Below, in pieces: positions 3,180 through 63,326 of a stretch of 63,326 nucleotides of DNA (position 1 is the stretch's first letter; each line of letters starts with the position of its first letter). Both the position numbers and the translations under genes were made by a program. The notes below the pieces were generated by a model, which made no database searches, was not told the DNA's origin, and was given only the letters and a program-made list of their open reading frames with translations. Location of the stretch: positions 1-63,326 of the forward strand of contig CANPZY010000005.1 in NCBI GenBank assembly GCA_947588945.1, read 5' to 3'. Source of the DNA: an uncultured Clostridia bacterium (lineage in GTDB: Bacteria > Bacillota > Clostridia > TANB77 > CAG-508).

Positions 3180-3265
3180 TTGTATTTTATGTAAAGTCAT
3201 GTTATAATAAAAACAGATGGTAAGTTTTTAATGCCGTCCGAAACTTCGGAGGCATTAGTCTCCGA
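3180..3265 (+). promoter_or_regulatory. promoter (TTGTAT-17-TATAAT with extended TG) plus a leader with two mutually exclusive hairpins
   Basis: tgttataat at 3200-3208. Hairpin taatgcc-g-tccga aact tcgga-g-ggcatta spans 3229-3257. The alternative pairing is tcggag (3246-3251) with ctccga (3260-3265). Confidence 0.4.
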
Positions 3266-3300
3266 TAAATAGACAAGATGATATTTAAGGAGGCTTTATC

Positions 3301-16728: not shown

Positions 16729-17382
16729 ATGGTTGAAGATATAAGCAGATTATTTAATAAGTTAATGGAAGATTTAGAAACTAACATAACTGATAAGGCT
16801 CAAAAGTCTAAAATTAAAAATGAATTAGTCGAACTTGTTTCACTTTTTATCAGTTCATCAAATAATCTTATAAGAATACAAGATAAGCAAGAAATGACTT
16901 TAAATAGAATAAAGAAACTTGAAAGAAAAATATCACAAATTGAAGAAGATATTTATATTGACGATGAGGAAAACAATTATGATAAAATGCATGATAATGA
17001 CTATGAATTTGAGATAAGATGTCCTTATTGTGATTATGACTTTATAATTAGTGAAGAATCTCAAGCTACAGATGAAATAGAATGTCCACAATGCCATAAT
17101 ATAATAGAACTAGATTGGGATGAAGCAAGTGAATGTGCAAAAGACTGTAAAGGTTGCAGTCAACATTGCTATCAAGATGAAGAAGAAACAGATTCTCAAG
17201 TAGAACAACTTTCAGAAGAAAACGAAGAATATAAACCTGATAGTAATGAAAAAAATAATATAAAAGATAATACAAATGATCCTAAAAACAATGAAAACCA
17301 AAATAATGCAAATAATATTCAAGATTTAAAAAAGAATAAAGAAGATAAAAATAAGCAAAATAACAATGAAGATGATATGTAA
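16729..17382 (+). CDS. zinc-ribbon protein with an acidic/Asn-rich tail (resembles the clostridial CD1247 N-terminal domain family, tentative)
   Basis: CPYCDYDF ... CPQCHNIIE zinc ribbon. The ATG at 16729 follows aaagga. The track start at 16714 is a TTG abutting the efp stop. Confidence 0.55.
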   Translation: MVEDISRLFNKLMEDLETNITDKAQKSKIKNELVELVSLFISSSNNLIRIQDKQEMTLNRIKKLERKISQIEEDIYIDDEENNYDKMHDNDYEFEIRCPYCDYDFIISEESQATDEIECPQCHNIIELDWDEASECAKDCKGCSQHCYQDEEETDSQVEQLSEENEEYKPDSNEKNNIKDNTNDPKNNENQNNANNIQDLKKNKEDKNKQNNNEDDM

Positions 17383-17434
17383 ATAATTTTTTAGATTAAT
17401 AAAAATATAAAACCTAAAAAATATATATAATATT

Positions 17435-17569
17435 AAAAAATAAAAATATAATTAATTTTTGTATCTTGTTGTCGCTAAAAGTGGCAAGCCACTTTTGCTC
17501 CATTCGCCCTTCGCGATGCTTCGGTTAATCGCTACACGATACTTCTAATTAATTATATTTTTATTTTTT
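17435..17569 (+). repeat. composite hairpin element, copy A: perfect 23-bp AT stem enclosing a conserved GC-rich structured core
   Basis: aaaaaataaaaatataattaatt (17435-17457) is the exact reverse complement of 17547-17569. The core gtatcttgttgtcgcta ... gctccattcgc ... cgctacacgatac is shared with 40459-40531. Confidence 0.8.
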
Positions 17570-19573: not shown

Positions 19574-20707
19574 ATGAGGAAAGTAAATTATAAGGAAAAA
19601 GGAATCACATTAATAGCATTAGTAGTAACAATCATAATATTGTTAATATTAGCAGGAGTAACGCTAACAACAGCATTGAGCCAAAATGGTTTATTTCAAA
19701 GAGCAAAGATAGCAGGAGAAAATTATAAAAAAGCAGAGGCAGATGAGACAGAGAAATTAGGAGAAGTAGAAAAAGAGATAGATAAAATAGTAAATGGAGA
19801 AACTCCACCAGACCCACCATCAAGTGGAATAGGAAGTAGTGACATAGCAGAAGATTTAAAAGAATATCAAGGAAAATATGTAGATATAGGGTTGGATACA
19901 AATGATGATAAACAAGTAAATGATTGGGAAATATTTTATGTAAATGAAGATAGAATATTTTTGATAGCAGCAGATTATGTACCAGTAGAAAATTTAAAAA
20001 AATGGGGAGTAATAGATGGAACATTAAAAAGTAATGGATTCATAGAATATTCTAGTAGCAGTAAATATAGTGTAGGTTGGAGCACGCCTACAACGTTTTT
20101 AAATGAAGGCTTAGCAGATTTAAACTTGGTAATGCATAATGGATATTACTTAAAAGGCCTTACGAGTGCTAGTGATTATAACTCAATAGCAGTATCACAC
20201 TTATTAAATAAAACAGCATGGGAAGGAGTAAAAAATGCAGCGGGTAAGAAGACAAGTATAGATTTTGTAATCGGAGGACCAACATTAGAGATGTGGTGTG
20301 CAGCATGGAATAAAGCTGTAGCTGAAGATGAAACCCTTAAGCAAATTCAAGCTGATGATGTGGGTGCGAGTGGATATTATTTGGGATGTGAAGCGACGAG
20401 CCTGGAGCAAAAGTTTGGATTGTGTGTAAATGGTACGGAATATTCTAATCCAAGTTCAAATGAAATTGAGAAGTACAAGGCTTTTTTTCCTCATACGGCT
20501 ATTTGGCGAGGTTGCTACGGATATTGGTTAGCGTCTCCATCGGCTGAGAAACCTGAGAACTTGTTAAGTGTTTACTTTGGAGGCCTTATAAGAAGCTGGT
20601 TGTATAATAACCACGTTTTGGGCGTGCGTCCCGTAGTTTCTCTAGTATCTGGTGTCCGAATAGAAGAAAGGGCTGATGTGAAGAACGTTTACGATTTAGA
20701 AGAGTAG
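19574..20707 (+). CDS. pilin-like protein paralog 2 with a lectin-like C-terminal domain (YWLASPSAE ... LGVRPVVSL)
   Basis: Conserved N-terminal module. The central DWEIFYVNEDRIFLIAADYVP block and the C-terminal motif are shared with 61981-63117. Confidence 0.8.
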   Translation: MRKVNYKEKGITLIALVVTIIILLILAGVTLTTALSQNGLFQRAKIAGENYKKAEADETEKLGEVEKEIDKIVNGETPPDPPSSGIGSSDIAEDLKEYQGKYVDIGLDTNDDKQVNDWEIFYVNEDRIFLIAADYVPVENLKKWGVIDGTLKSNGFIEYSSSSKYSVGWSTPTTFLNEGLADLNLVMHNGYYLKGLTSASDYNSIAVSHLLNKTAWEGVKNAAGKKTSIDFVIGGPTLEMWCAAWNKAVAEDETLKQIQADDVGASGYYLGCEATSLEQKFGLCVNGTEYSNPSSNEIEKYKAFFPHTAIWRGCYGYWLASPSAEKPENLLSVYFGGLIRSWLYNNHVLGVRPVVSLVSGVRIEERADVKNVYDLEE

Positions 20708-20839
20708 GAGTTAAGGTTGATTAAGTTGCGTACTGCTGGGCCTCGCGTCCAGCCTCGCTCCGATGTATAACGTAATTTTTTAATTTTATAGATTATGTAT
20801 TGTAGAGGAAACTGATATTTTTATAATATTAAAATGGGA

Positions 20840-20939: not shown

Positions 20940-21078
20940 ATAATTCGGTATTAGTGTGATATATATCAAAGGCAAATTGACTTTGATAGCCTAAAAGTGT
21001 ATATGCACGAATACACTCTTTAGAAAGGAGATAAGAAACTATTAACGGCACCATTCTACAAGCAGGAGGTAAAACTTT

Positions 21079-22506
21079 ATGGATGAAAGGCTTTTAAGTC
21101 TTGTACCAAAGCGCTTCCGATGTCCCTATTGTGGAGAATGGCACGAGTGGAAACTTGGGTATAGGTTAGAATTTTATGATTCGTTTGACTATCAAGCTAA
21201 ATTAGAATGTTCTAACGCACCATATGGTTGTAACGAAGGCGATTATAGAATTTATTTCCGTAATGGCTACTGTTACTATTCCACTGTGAAAATGTGCAAA
21301 AGGGCAAATCAATCAATTAGTGGAAAGATTCCAATTTCTTCTATAATTGAAAGTACAAATGCTCCAACTGTCACTTTTGAAGTACCGTTTACTGCGGATT
21401 GTGATGTGGGAAGCTACGAATGCTCAAGTTGCATGTACAGAAGAAAATGTCTTTGTGTCAAGTTGGGTGACGAAGGTGATAAACGCAACATGAAAATCAC
21501 ATTCGGATTTGAATTTGATCAATCACAATACAATCAATTTTCAAAAACTGCAACCTTAGCACAAAAGGAAAAAGAACTGCAAGAGCGCGAACGGGCTATT
21601 GATAGCAAGGAACAGGCCTTAAAAGAGCGCGAACAGACTATTGACAGCAAAGAACTTGCTTTAAAAGAGCGAGAAGATGCTGTTGCTAGTAAAAAACAAG
21701 TTTCTAGGCAGTCACAGGTAAAAGAAAATAAGGAGGATACAGCTATGGCAAAAAACATTTTTAACGTAAACATGGAGTTTGGTCCCAACAAGGACGAGAA
21801 CATTACAAGTACCCTTATGGGCGTTGCTGTCAAGAACGGCGACAACTGGCGGATTTATGACAAGAAGAAGAAGGAAATCACTGATGTCGGCGACATTCAG
21901 CTCGGCAATCTGCCTATCTTCATTCTGCCCACTACCCAGCTCAGCGAGGGCGATCTTATCAAGGACAACGGAGAGTACTATTTTGTAACTAAGGTTGCGA
22001 CGACCAAGACACCGACTCAGACCTTGTCTGCGAGAACTGGCGAGATGAAGAACGTCGTTCCCATCAAGAACATTCTGGGCTTCAGTTGCTACTCGAAGGT
22101 TATTGCCCTCAGCGATTCACTCAACCTGGGAGATGACTTGGATGTAGAAAAGCTGGCCATTATGTCGGCAATGTGCGGTCAGACTGGCGAGGACGGAGGC
22201 CAGATGAATCAGCTCCTGCCTTTGTTCCTTTTCAAGGATGGGATTGGAGGAGATGATGACATGACGAAGCTGTTGCTTATGTCTTCCATGATGACCTCTG
22301 AAGAAGACGGAGGCCAGATGAATCAGCTCCTTCCTCTGTTGCTTTTCAAGGATAAGCTTGGAGGCGATGATGACACGATGAAGCTGTTGCTCATGTCGTC
22401 CATGATGGGCGGCAATATGGCAGGTTCTAACAACCCTGTTATGGGTTATCTGATGATTGATACACTTCTGGGAAAGAAAGAACATTCTCAGAAGGCCGAT
22501 GAATAA
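21079..22506 (+). CDS. chimeric hypothetical protein: Cys-rich N-domain, coiled-coil repeats, then a high-GC C-terminal module with an internal duplication
   Basis: RBS aggaggt. CPYCGEW ... CSSCMYRRKC. DSKEQALKEREQTIDSKELALKERE repeats. An internal aaggagg RBS precedes the in-frame ATG at 21745. C-terminal duplicated units EDGGQMNQLLPL[FL]LFKD.[IL]GGDDD.(T)KLLLMSSMM. Confidence 0.6.
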   Translation: MDERLLSLVPKRFRCPYCGEWHEWKLGYRLEFYDSFDYQAKLECSNAPYGCNEGDYRIYFRNGYCYYSTVKMCKRANQSISGKIPISSIIESTNAPTVTFEVPFTADCDVGSYECSSCMYRRKCLCVKLGDEGDKRNMKITFGFEFDQSQYNQFSKTATLAQKEKELQERERAIDSKEQALKEREQTIDSKELALKEREDAVASKKQVSRQSQVKENKEDTAMAKNIFNVNMEFGPNKDENITSTLMGVAVKNGDNWRIYDKKKKEITDVGDIQLGNLPIFILPTTQLSEGDLIKDNGEYYFVTKVATTKTPTQTLSARTGEMKNVVPIKNILGFSCYSKVIALSDSLNLGDDLDVEKLAIMSAMCGQTGEDGGQMNQLLPLFLFKDGIGGDDDMTKLLLMSSMMTSEEDGGQMNQLLPLLLFKDKLGGDDDTMKLLLMSSMMGGNMAGSNNPVMGYLMIDTLLGKKEHSQKADE

Positions 22507-39362: not shown

Positions 39363-40424
39363 ATGAATAGTAGGATTATTGCAATAAGAGAAAAGATGAA
39401 ATCTTATGGAATTGATGGATTAATTGTAACTAATCAAAATAATATTAGATATTTAATTGATGTTGAAGCAGAAGGAACTTTACTTTTGACAAGCAAGGAA
39501 AATATTTTTATAACAGACGCAAGATATATAGAAAGCGTAAATAACATAATTACAATTGAAGATGAAATAATTGTACTAGATATAATAAATGTTTCAGAGA
39601 GTGACTTAATTAGTTTTTTTGCAGATTGTGAAAAAGTAGGAATAGAAGAAGATAATATATCTTATTCTAAATATAAAAATTTTGTAAGAATGTTTAGATT
39701 AAGAGATGCAGTAGAAACAAATGGATTAATTGAAAAAGAAAGAATAATAAAAGATAAATATGAAATAGAAAAAATTAGAAAAGCCTGTGAGATAACAGAC
39801 AGTTGCTATAAACATTTGTTAAATTATATAAAAGTAGGAATGACAGAAAAAGAGATAGCATTTGAAATAGAAAGATTTTTTCTAGAAAATGGTGCAGATG
39901 GATTAGCATTTCCAAGTATTGTTGCAAGTGGAGAAAATTCTTCAAAACCACATAGTGTTCCAAGTGCAAGAAAAATTGCAAGAGGAGATAGTATAGTTAT
40001 TGATTTTGGCGCAAAATATAAAGGTTATTGTAGCGATATGACTAGAACAATATTTGTTGGCGAAGTAAGTGATGAAATAAAAGAATTATATAATTTTATA
40101 TTAAATTGCCAAAAGAGAGCAACAAATAAAATGAAAAACAACGCCGATGCTCATGAAATAACAGAAAGTGTAGAAAAAGAATTTAACGCAAGAAGTTATA
40201 GCTTAATACACGCATTAGGTCATGGCGTCGGACTAGAAGTACATGAGCTTCCATTTTTAAGTATAAAAAGAGAAAGTGTTTTAAAAGAAAATATGGTGGT
40301 TGCTAATGAACCTGGAATTTATATACCGGGAAAAATAGGGATTAGAATTGAGGATACAATTTTAATTAATGTAATGACTTCGGAAGAGCTTACTAAATCT
40401 GATAAAAATTTGACTATAATATAA
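39363..40424 (+). CDS. M24-family Xaa-Pro aminopeptidase
   Basis: Creatinase-like N-domain plus the pita-bread metal ligands VIDFGAKYKGYCSDMTRT, HALGHGVGLEVHE, NEPGIY and IRIEDT. Confidence 0.85.
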   Translation: MNSRIIAIREKMKSYGIDGLIVTNQNNIRYLIDVEAEGTLLLTSKENIFITDARYIESVNNIITIEDEIIVLDIINVSESDLISFFADCEKVGIEEDNISYSKYKNFVRMFRLRDAVETNGLIEKERIIKDKYEIEKIRKACEITDSCYKHLLNYIKVGMTEKEIAFEIERFFLENGADGLAFPSIVASGENSSKPHSVPSARKIARGDSIVIDFGAKYKGYCSDMTRTIFVGEVSDEIKELYNFILNCQKRATNKMKNNADAHEITESVEKEFNARSYSLIHALGHGVGLEVHELPFLSIKRESVLKENMVVANEPGIYIPGKIGIRIEDTILINVMTSEELTKSDKNLTII

Positions 40425-40433
40425 TTTATTATT

Positions 40434-40557
40434 AAAAATGAAAATATTATAATTTCTCGTATCTTGTTGTCGCTAGAAAGTGATAAATCACTTTCGCTCC
40501 ATTCGCGCTTCGCTTGAGCGCTACGCGATACTTCGAAATTATAATATTTTCATTTTT
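40434..40557 (+). repeat. composite hairpin element, copy B
   Basis: aaaaatgaaaatattataattt (40434-40455) is the exact reverse complement of 40536-40557. The core at 40459-40531 is homologous to 17461-17542. Confidence 0.8.
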
Positions 40558-42292: not shown

Positions 42293-43459
42293 ATGAAGAA
42301 TAAAATTATATCTACAATAGTTATAGTAATACTCATGAGTACATATTTTATAAATGTGAGTTTAGCAGTTCCAACTCAATCAGAGATAGATGCTTTAAGG
42401 AGAGAACAGCAAAATGCGATTGCACAAAAAAATGCAATTAGTGAAGAAAAGTCTAATGAAAAGAAGAGCTTAGAAGAACTAAATGATGAATTAGACACAC
42501 TTAATAATGAAATAATGAATCTTCAAAATCAATTAAATACATTAAATAATTCAATATCAGAAAAAGAAAGTGAAATTGAAGTAAAACAAGCTGAACTTGA
42601 AGAAAAACAAGAACTTTTAAAGAAAAGACTAGTTGCAATGTATAAAACTGGAGGAATAAAATATTTAGATGTCTTATTAGGTGCAACAAGTTATGTAGAT
42701 ATGCTTGCGTCGTTTGATGCATTAGAGAGAATAGCTGATGCAGACACAAAATTAATAAATAAAGTAACTGATGAAAAAAGAGAACTAGAAAAAATTAAAT
42801 CAGAATTAGAAGAAGAAAAAGCAAAAGTTGATTCAGTAAAAGCTGAAAAAGATGCTAAGAATGTTGAGTTAAAAGCAAAACAAAAAGAAAAAGAAAATAG
42901 AATTGCATCTTTATCAGCAGAAGAGCAAGAGAAAGAGAAGTTAATTGAAAAATATCGTGCAGAGATTCAAAAAGGCGAGCAAGAGATTCAAGCTGAGATT
43001 GAAAGAAATAAAAATGCTAATAAAGGACAAAGTACAGTTGTTGGAAGTATAGATAATTCAAATGGAACTTTAGGTTGGCCACTTCCAAGTGCTTATGCAA
43101 GATATTCATATATTACTTCATATTTTGGACCAAGAGTAAGACCAACAGCAGGAGCTTCAACTAACCATGGAGCAATTGATATAGGAGTTGCCTATCAACC
43201 AGTATATGCATCAGAATCTGGAATAGTAGTAACATCAGGAGTAGTATCTGGTTATGGTAATTTCGTAATGATATGGCATAATGGTAAAGGACAATTATAC
43301 ACAGCTTACGCACATTTATCAACTATATATGTTTCAGCTGGACAAACAGTTAAAAGAGGACAACAAATAGCAGTTTCAGGAAATACAGGAGTTACAACTG
43401 GACCACATTTACACTTTGAGGTAAGATCAGGTGGTAGCCGGTTCAGGAAACAGAGTTGA
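42293..43459 (+). CDS. coiled-coil M23 peptidase (EnvC-like), C-terminal tail frameshifted
   Basis: Signal peptide, long coiled coil, HGAIDIG ... NTGVTTGPHLHFEV. The expected tail GSGNRVDPLNYVIVS is in the +1 frame and ends at 43487. Confidence 0.8.
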   Translation: MKNKIISTIVIVILMSTYFINVSLAVPTQSEIDALRREQQNAIAQKNAISEEKSNEKKSLEELNDELDTLNNEIMNLQNQLNTLNNSISEKESEIEVKQAELEEKQELLKKRLVAMYKTGGIKYLDVLLGATSYVDMLASFDALERIADADTKLINKVTDEKRELEKIKSELEEEKAKVDSVKAEKDAKNVELKAKQKEKENRIASLSAEEQEKEKLIEKYRAEIQKGEQEIQAEIERNKNANKGQSTVVGSIDNSNGTLGWPLPSAYARYSYITSYFGPRVRPTAGASTNHGAIDIGVAYQPVYASESGIVVTSGVVSGYGNFVMIWHNGKGQLYTAYAHLSTIYVSAGQTVKRGQQIAVSGNTGVTTGPHLHFEVRSGGSRFRKQS

Positions 43460-43659
43460 TCCATTAAATTATGTTATTGTATCATAATAAGAGAGTATAA
43501 TAAAATCATAAAAATATAAATTAATTCTAGTATTTTAATATACTTAAAAGGTAATATGAAAAATACTTTGAATTAATTATATTTTTATTAATGTAAGGAA
43601 AAAATTGTAATATAAATAAATTGACTAAATAAAATAAATAATATGTAAAAGGAGAAAAA

Positions 43660-61980: not shown

Positions 61981-63117
61981 ATGAGAAAAGTAAATTATAA
62001 GGAAAAAGGAATCACATTAATAGCGCTAGTAGTAACAATTATAATATTGTTAATTTTAGCAGGAGTAACACTAACAACAGCATTGAGCCAAAATGGATTA
62101 TTTCAAAGAGCAAAGATAGTAGTAGAAAAATATAAAGAAGCAGAGGCAGATGAGGCAGAAAAATTAGGAGAAGTGGAAAAGGAGCTAGATAAAATAATAG
62201 ATGGAGAAACACCACCAGATCCACCAAAAAAACCAGATCCAGTTGAGGTAACAGAAAAAAATCTAAAAGAATTTCAAGGAAAATATGTAGATATAGGGTT
62301 AGATACAAATGATAATAAAGAAGTGGATGATTGGGAAATATTTTATGTAAATGAAGGTAGAATATTTTTAATAGCTGTGGACTATGTTCCAGTATCCCAA
62401 TTAAGCACATGGGGAGTAATGAAAGCATTAAACGATACTGGGTTTCAACGATGTAGAGATGATTATGAATATAATGTAAATTGGAATATGCCTGAAACCT
62501 TTTTGGAAGAAGGCTTAGCAGATTTAAACTTGGTAAAGCATACAACCTATGACTTAAAGGACAATAGGAATAAAGTGAACTCAATAGCAGTATCACACTT
62601 ACTAAATACGACAGCATGGAATGGGGTAAAAACAGCAGCAAGTGCAGATAAACAACAATATATAGATTTTGTAATCGGAGGATCAACATTAGAGATGTGG
62701 TGTGAGGCATGGAATGTAGCTGTAGATGGAGATGAGACCCTTAAACGAATTCGTGCTGATGGTAGTGGTACGAGTGGATATTATGTGGGATGTGAAGCGA
62801 CAAACCATGAGAAAGAGGAGGAATTGTATGTAAATGGTTCGATAGATTCTGCGGTAGAATTAACTAAACTTGATAAGTACGAGACATTTTTCCCTCATAC
62901 GGCTCAATATGAAAGTTGCGACGGATATTGGTTGGCGTCTCCTTCCGCTGAAGTGAACCCTGGATGCTTGATGTACGTGAGGTTTGACGGGGGCGTTAAG
63001 TTGTATGCCACTACCAGTGGCTGGTACTTGGGTGTGCGACCGGTGGTTTCTCTAGAATCTGGAGTCAGAATTGTAAAGAGGGAAGGTGCGAATAAGATAT
63101 ACGACGTGATTATGTAG
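61981..63117 (+). CDS. pilin-like protein paralog 3 with a lectin-like C-terminal domain
   Basis: Same N-terminal 65 aa and central blocks as 19574-20707. C-terminus is DGYWLASPSAE ... YLGVRPVVSLESGVRI. Confidence 0.8.
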   Translation: MRKVNYKEKGITLIALVVTIIILLILAGVTLTTALSQNGLFQRAKIVVEKYKEAEADEAEKLGEVEKELDKIIDGETPPDPPKKPDPVEVTEKNLKEFQGKYVDIGLDTNDNKEVDDWEIFYVNEGRIFLIAVDYVPVSQLSTWGVMKALNDTGFQRCRDDYEYNVNWNMPETFLEEGLADLNLVKHTTYDLKDNRNKVNSIAVSHLLNTTAWNGVKTAASADKQQYIDFVIGGSTLEMWCEAWNVAVDGDETLKRIRADGSGTSGYYVGCEATNHEKEEELYVNGSIDSAVELTKLDKYETFFPHTAQYESCDGYWLASPSAEVNPGCLMYVRFDGGVKLYATTSGWYLGVRPVVSLESGVRIVKREGANKIYDVIM

Positions 63118-63326
63118 TATTTAGGATAGGGTTGAATGGGTGCTCCTGGGCCCCATGTCCAGTCTCGGTCCGATGTGTGAAGCTATTTTTTTATTCCATT
63201 GTAAGAGAAAATTACAAGTGAATTTAAATTTCAAGATAGTGTATTATATAGTGGTTCTTTGTCAAGTTAGTTGACATTAAAAATAATATGTGATAAAATA
63301 TCCTTCGTAGAATTACGGAGGATAAA

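Follow-up and report, generated by a model that had tools for sequence, protein, structure and literature searches.

Nested-palindromic repeats with a conserved branched core behind genes of uncultured rabbit-gut Clostridia: a probable selfish DNA element

Introduction

Bacterial intergenic regions harbour several kinds of short palindromic repeat. MITE-type repeats, among them Correia/NEMIS, RUP, ERIC and BOX, are non-coding, 100-200 bp long and intergenic, have inverted-repeat ends, differ in presence or absence between strains, and may supply terminators or promoters. From copy to copy a MITE keeps its terminal repeats, which correspond to those of a parent IS, and its insertion makes a target-site duplication. 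Hairpin-targeting insertion sequences enter the palindromes themselves, IS1397 and ISKpn1 into REP loops and IS1111-type elements into attC sites; these are autonomous, transposase-encoding elements of 1.2-1.5 kb.

The closest described system is that of REP/REPIN sequences and their RAYT (HUH Y1) transposases (PMC3116915, PMC3337134, PMC3733652), in which high-copy extragenic palindromes lie mostly 3' of genes and the same genome has a cognate single-copy RAYT gene, usually with REPs at its flanks. REPINs show compensated changes in their hairpin spacers, their flanking A/T runs have been taken as co-option for attenuation, and excision of their centre leaves long palindromes (PMC3116915, PMC3337134). 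A further parallel comes from plastid non-coding DNA, in which minute hairpin-loop inversions place the apex in either orientation among close relatives with no dedicated recombinase (Kelchner and Wendel 1996, as cited in PMC12371153).

The family considered here consists of lineage-specific, non-coding, nested-palindromic DNA repeats of 125-200 bp in uncultured rabbit-gut Clostridia, and it appears to be undescribed in the literature. It recalls the REP/REPIN system in its high copy number, its extragenic position downstream of genes, its long compensated hairpin, its A/T runs, the palindromes left after central excision and its vertical persistence at loci. A REP is a short imperfect palindrome with a terminal GTAG or CGTC tag; here the bottom strand reads GTAG directly before the third stem, P3 (GTAGCGCT...AGCGC), in 9 of 10 copies, but that stem is only 4-5 bp long, and in front of hairpin 1 there is CTAG, CTA or AAC in place of GTAG. 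The layout is moreover reversed, with a conserved centre and variable ends where a REPIN has two conserved inverted REPs around a variable middle; the core is asymmetric, its stems P1, P2 and P3 all differing, rather than a doublet of one REP, and the arms are nearly pure A+T. We therefore do not claim membership of the REP/REPIN group, and a published survey of GTAG/CGTC REPs makes no mention of Clostridia or Firmicutes. With MITEs the element shares its non-coding, intergenic nature, inverted-repeat ends and presence or absence between strains, but its arms vary by locus and are only weakly alike, and we found neither an evident duplication nor a parent IS. Hairpin-targeting insertion sequences would offer a parallel in using a palindrome tip as target, if the core alone were mobile, but the unit that would move here is about 85 nt long and has no ORF. 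The plastid inversions concern ordinary spacer of 4-50 bp, whereas an 80-nt conserved and structured repeat module is involved here.

Two copies of a nested palindrome

The window, by which we mean the whole stretch of 63,326 nucleotides analysed, derives from a rabbit-gut metagenome and has a base composition of 27% G+C. Two copies of the element stand out in it. Each is a long, near-pure A+T stem with an A-run on one side and a T-run on the other, and a G+C-rich three-way junction forms its cap (both cores are about 80 nt long, with about 50% G+C). Their parts are as follows.

Copy 1
17401..17457, left arm; perfect 23-bp A+T part at 17435-17457, imperfect pairing outward to 17401
17458..17546, + strand, core with asymmetric spacers (TTT ... 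TTCT), 'long P3' subtype
17461-17465/17538-17542 and 17467-17469/17534-17536, stem P1
17474-17475/17497-17498 (clamp) plus 17477-17484/17489-17496, stem P2
17497-17507, junction motif GCTCCATTCGC
17513-17517/17528-17532, stem P3
17547..17603, right arm; perfect part at 17547-17569 with a T-run at its end, imperfect extension to 17603

Copy 2
40434..40455, left arm; perfect 22 bp, A+T bar one G, preceded by an A-run
40456..40535, + strand, core with spacers (CTC ... TTCG), 'short P3' subtype
40459-40463/40527-40531 and 40465-40467/40523-40525, stem P1, including a T.G pair
40472-40473/40496-40497 (clamp) plus 40476-40483/40488-40495, stem P2
40496-40506, junction motif GCTCCATTCGC
40505-40509/40517-40521, stem P3
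40536..40557, right arm; perfect 22 bp, then TTT

The original prediction had described both copies as perfect inverted repeats of 23 and 22 bp that enclose a common core just 3' of + strand genes, and in these respects it was borne out. The arms are exact reverse complements, with one further pair inward in copy 2 and an extended arm of 57 nt, 81% complementary, in copy 1. The 63 kb contain exactly two occurrences of GTATCTTGTTGTCGCTA and exactly two of GCTCCATTCGC, where 0.08 and 0.20 are expected, and across the whole window only these two copies have a perfect inverted repeat that is 20 bp or longer and encloses a 40-150 nt spacer; the same search in 20 block-shuffles of the window found none. 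Copy 1 starts 52 nt past the stop codon ending at 17382, behind an unknown 222-aa protein gene that closes an ireB-ruvX-efp cluster, and copy 2 starts 9 nt past the stop ending at 40424, behind a gene for Xaa-Pro aminopeptidase and ahead of ftsE-ftsX-pcsB. An A-run, a long stem and a T-run directly past a stop codon are the marks of a Rho-independent terminator. Ordinary terminators of these genomes, however, have 16-19-bp stems that contain G/C and loops of 2-10 nt, in contrast to the all-A+T stems of 22-29 bp seen here and, in the intact element, the 80-nt branched cap.

The claim that the arms are unrelated between copies held only in part: they do differ in sequence, but they are not wholly unrelated, because the likeness of left arms from non-orthologous copies exceeds that of random A+T-rich windows, a crude null against which p is about 0.007 for copies 1 and 2, 0.006 for copy 1 and the element L043a, and 0.014 for copy 2 and the element L043b.

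A family of related elements

A covariance-model search for further copies, as the original prediction had proposed, was made with orthologous loci fetched by their flanking proteins and a model, R1, built from six sequences. In about 370 kb of sequence it identified 10 distinct members, which occupy six loci and come from three or four related lineages, with scores of 98 bits (E 4e-27) for the core of copy 1 and 94.9 bits for that of copy 2. All 10 members are intergenic and downstream of a gene, and at five of the six loci the element is co-oriented with that gene. The upstream genes have no functional kinship (the unknown 222-aa protein after efp, the Xaa-Pro peptidase, an MFS transporter and Ldh), and the flanking genes are housekeeping ones (the efp operon, pepP-like, ftsEX and secA).

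Within the core, the unpaired junction motifs TTGTTGTCGC, GCTCCATTCGC and CGCTAC are invariant, while stems P1 and P2 show compensated changes only. P1 occurs as GTATC/GATAC, GTGGT/ACCAC and GTTGT/ACAAC, and hairpin 1 in at least five compensated versions; its covariation between the window copies, AAAAGTGG/CCACTTTT against GAAAGTGA/TCACTTTC, had been noticed before, as had the change in the closing helix from T-A in copy 1 to T.G in copy 2. Pairing is present in 99.4% of the cells of the model alignment, which is fitted to R1 and hence favours pairing, and both sides have changed in 12 of the 17 modelled pairs. None of 500 shuffles reached the observed pairing, and slid controls fell to 26-48% paired. 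P3 is outside any single column set, because copy 1 has a 10-nt insertion and L026 a shifted 4-bp stem. The second hairpin had been read as GCGAT/ATCGC in copy 1 and GCGCT/AGCGC in copy 2; both stems are there, but they are not equivalent column for column, the 5' arm of copy 1 lying within the insertion. Pairing is Watson-Crick everywhere bar one conserved T.G in P1 and two G.T pairs in a decayed copy. Folded as RNA, the copies give z-scores of -6.9 (copy 1) and -7.8 (copy 2), and folded as DNA the two strands are about equally stable.

Copy number appears to be high. In four runs of one sample, the summed depth of Logan contigs reaches 430-680 over 40494-40535 while the flanks have about 10; core depth is about 40-70 times flank depth in the source rabbit-gut samples, and a sister-species sample shows the same excess over the core. 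This amounts to tens of copies per genome, and the two copies per 63 kb of the window scale to the same order. Scanning genome contigs with the 5' 17-mer of the core gave 21 matches, of which the real ones were only L006 and L007, from the rabbit-gut Clostridia MAG CANQHI01, and the remainder were chance matches in unrelated phyla. One scan of metagenome contigs returned nothing but two chance coding matches (the contig-depth profile suggests that the 3' half of the core would suit metagenome probing better), three scans of viral contigs returned one chance coding match and otherwise nothing, and BLAST against plasmids and phages gave no match to the element. Rfam had no match at its gathering thresholds anywhere in the 63 kb, the best sub-threshold matches scoring 9-20 bits against thresholds of 35-245, a chance level; the element thus belongs to no named RNA family there, as had been supposed. 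A search of RNA runs turned up none that contained the locus. Neither a transposase nor a recombinase was present among the 10 window proteins scanned by domain, and no longer element with the same ends occurred in about 370 kb.

Fates of the element at orthologous sites

At copy 1's locus the element is present in a second sample of the window species, in which ACG replaces ACA. In the three assemblies of the sister species the locus, which there lies between convergent genes, contains just AAAAAAATAAAAATATAATTAATTATATTTTTATTTTTTT, a loopless all-A+T palindrome of 58 bp with a 29-bp stem. This is the empty hairpin that the original prediction had suggested looking for at orthologous sites. 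Had the insert simply been removed, the remnant would be 8 bp (AATTAATT) longer; the observed length is one that insertion with an 8-bp duplication and a symmetric microhomology deletion would give alike. The insert of copy 1 is flanked by the 8-bp AATTAATT, which is itself a palindrome and so uninformative as a duplication, and no target-site duplication flanks copy 2, L043a, L043b or the L026 element. Given that AATTAATT is self-complementary and that the other copies have no duplication, deletion is tentatively favoured for this locus over insertion with duplication. More distant relatives have neither arms nor core at four loci, among them the two occupied only in CANQHI01, where the relatives are at 77-81% identity.

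At copy 2's locus the six window-species assemblies all have the element in the + orientation, as do two of the three from the sister species (L006 and L062). In L025 the flanks are 97% identical to those of L006 over 1.8 kb, and the last 49 nt match the core on the opposite strand. The left arm of L025 is the reverse complement of the right arm of L006, arm mismatch and asymmetric spacer included, and because of this mirroring the inverted segment includes the inner arms. The flip is seen in one Logan contig that ends inside the core. An assembly artefact was considered and rejected for this single contig: the arm shared by the true and false paths is about 22 nt long, shorter than the 30-mer overlap that Logan, which we take to be built with k = 31, would require. 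Four further assemblies, L026-L029, whose peptidase is 69% identical, have a complete, diverged and inverted core between homologous arms, and across lineages this far apart the core at this locus is still about 50% G+C. A third clade, with a peptidase 68% identical, has no element and an integrase-led insertion instead; this insertion follows the peptidase gene at 11300-12208 in L030-L032, is led by a tyrosine integrase, and is accompanied in L030 by ParA/ParB and SpaA-type genes. The end of the peptidase gene appears to be a recurrent integration site. The contig L061 encodes an FtsE identical to that of the sister species, but upstream (1-216) it has an L026-type spacer with an extra hairpin (agagttcaaat...atttgaactct) missing from the window and from L006; close strains thus differ in the structure of the pepP-ftsE spacer.

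Decay and loss can be followed elsewhere. On the minus strand of L006, 5957-6031, lies a decayed tandem second copy (core and right arm) with ATTTTCAT direct repeats at its bounds, eroded mostly by G-to-A and C-to-T changes and missing in the window species. It retains the window-type hairpin 1, while its intact neighbour has a different, fully compensated hairpin 1. In the window itself, one long hairpin is probably a core-less relic of the family:

43501..43595, long A+T hairpin; the preceding gene ends at 43459

Its arms resemble those of copy 1 (p about 0.006), and further in it reads CTaGTAT...ATACTTTG, much like the ends of the element where spacer meets P1; R1 has no match there. The apex of this hairpin, 43530-43552, has 23 nt (aatatacttaaaaggtaatatga) against about 1 nt in the sister species, and hairpin tips appear to be indel hot spots in these genomes.

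Competing interpretations

Judged from sequence comparison, the element is probably a non-autonomous DNA repeat of REP- or MITE-like kind, which also serves as a terminator hairpin and whose core flips by way of its own arms. That it behaves as a DNA-level palindromic repeat, and not as a strand-specific RNA gene, follows from its occurrence in present, arms-only, decayed and inverted states, its high copy number and its strict Watson-Crick symmetry. In such a scheme copies would survive only behind genes, where the stem and T-run could act as an intrinsic and probably bidirectional terminator, the arms presumably performing that work, and any one locus could hold a copy that is present, reduced to its arms, decayed or flipped. 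The flip is most simply seen as passive inversion of a hairpin apex through its own inverted-repeat arms, whether by recombination or by template switching during replication, as in the minute inversions of plastid hairpins (PMC12371153); arms of 18-23 bp would suffice to invert the apex with no dedicated machinery, and a programmed switch would not be needed. The mobile unit is probably the whole hairpin rather than a core entering existing loops, given the likeness of arms between loci, the oddity of a loopless all-A+T empty palindrome, and relatives in which arms and core are both lacking.

The conserved junction may in turn be what a trans-acting enzyme recognises when it copies or homogenises the elements; the best guess is a single-strand-specific HUH/Y1 transposase (RAYT or IS200/IS605-like) acting on a folded lagging-strand template. 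The GC skew of the window's + strand is strongly positive (+0.13 to +0.32), and on this basis the + strand, which carries the T.G-tolerant 'top' strand of both copies, would be the lagging-strand template. Co-orientation bias fits single-strand transposition on such a template, or an RNA-level benefit. Retention of a G+C-rich core under A+T mutation pressure means that selection, gene conversion or repeated re-insertion is needed and that 'junk' alone is insufficient; nor does 'junk' alone explain the predominance of co-orientation, which an RNA role predicts too. A more speculative possibility, which we rate as rather unlikely, is that these repeats represent a new architectural class of bacterial non-autonomous element, a 'centre-conserved' nested palindrome in which an invariant three-way junction, and not the ends, would be read by a structure-specific enzyme and a built-in bidirectional terminator would allow very long vertical persistence behind essential operons. 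The P1 and P2 stems would then co-evolve with that enzyme, as P1 'alleles' (GTATC, GTGGT, GTTGT) coexist within and between genomes.

The most serious rival is a cis-acting structured RNA at mRNA 3' ends, whether terminator, exonuclease block or protein-binding 3'-UTR motif, that is selected on the + transcript and for which mobility is secondary. Much of what is described above would suit it: the element points the same way as the upstream gene in both window copies and at five of six loci, invariant junction nucleotides accompany covarying stems, the P1 T.G pair is tolerated on the 'top' strand only, a G+C-rich core persists over deep divergence at copy 2's locus, and the folds are very stable (the z-scores of -6.9 and -7.8). 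Yet at that same locus the core is inverted in a species-level cluster and in a second lineage with the downstream operon kept, the sister species has an arms-only site, and a tandem copy has decayed. Further, there is no G.U among about 39 hairpin-1 base pairs or in any arm, which is unusual for selected RNA helices, and the element matches no Rfam family and follows genes that are functionally unrelated. We consider this explanation unlikely. The original prediction had offered two readings, and while that of a mobile element in A+T-rich terminator palindromes fits the data, the strand-specific 3'-UTR RNA is weakened because copies have flipped or been lost and their pairing is nearly all Watson-Crick.

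Host proteins may also make use of dispersed palindromes, as IHF and gyrase bind BIMEs, and the copies might similarly be kept as host-domesticated DNA sites whose junction or cruciform is bound by a chromosome-organising or replication/repair protein. Invariant junction motifs, long-term retention at copy 2's locus, the regular occurrence of a copy about every 30 kb of the window, and about equal folding of both strands as DNA are all consistent with such a role. Against these stand the dispensability of copies at individual loci and the lack of a candidate binding protein, and the idea is compatible with a selfish repeat rather than exclusive of it; as an explanation in its own right we find it doubtful.

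A programmed inverton is highly improbable; in it a hybrid promoter, made up of a -35-like GCGACA from the core and a TATAAT from the arm, would be turned towards the upstream or the downstream gene as the core flips. On the minus strand copy 2 does contain a promoter-like match of 10/12 (GCGACA, 16 nt, TATAAT; 40473 to 40446), which would face ftsE of the ftsE/ftsX/pcsB operon once inverted, and both orientations occur in nature. The arms differ between copies, however, so that there is no common recombinase site; copy 1 has no comparable match and the spacing in other copies ranges from 15 to 19 nt; a single orientation is present in six of six window-species and two of three sister-species assemblies; TATAAT is expected by chance in A+T-rich arms; and the core is conserved far beyond the needs of a -35 box.

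Four other candidates were discarded: a small self-cleaving ribozyme (no Rfam match, no hammerhead or twister core motifs), an integron attC site (no R''/R' boxes, RYYYAAC ... GTTRRRY, in the arms or P1, and housekeeping flanking genes), a retron msr/msd (multi-copy, with no adjacent reverse transcriptase), and a tRNA-like element (the window-wide Rfam search returned no tRNA at the gathering threshold).

Implications

Covariation and conserved junction nucleotides in a 3'-UTR position can arise from a DNA-level palindromic repeat, and for elements of this kind orthologous sites should be checked before they are catalogued as RNA motifs. These repeats extend the range of REP- and MITE-like extragenic repeats to uncultured gut Clostridia with small genomes of very low G+C, and do so with an unusual layout of conserved centre, variable arms and built-in terminator. 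Copies are usable as strain markers (present, absent or flipped), and a partner enzyme, should one be found, would help to explain the persistence of structure-specific DNA elements in streamlined genomes.

Other observations

Several other features of the window and of related contigs merit a record. Two homologous G+C-rich segments (up to 68%) with T-run ends, 20706-20781 and 63113-63191, directly follow the pilin-like genes 19574-20707 and 61981-63117, respectively. They share ...CTGGGCC.C..GTCCAG.CTCG.TCCGATGT..., have no R1 match, and suggest either a conserved structured 3' end or another repeat family. An ORF, 21079-22506, is located within a stretch of 50-68% G+C (21000-22500 of the window) in a genome of 27% G+C, contains internal near-repeats (GGCCAGATGAATCAGCTCCT... 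twice) and has only a weak RNase_Y_N match in Pfam; foreign DNA and a gene for a repeat protein are both possible. Short G+C-rich intergenic islands occur at 847-899 and 3233-3273 (gaatggcttttactgacgcttagcatcagttcgggtcaggtcc; gccgtccgaaacttcggaggc...), without an Rfam or R1 match. In a related lineage, a gene for a 378-aa RVT_1 reverse transcriptase (L052, 6304-7440; L053, 226-1362) lies two genes upstream of an AI-2E transporter gene, whereas CANQHI01 and L046 show no counterpart in that position.
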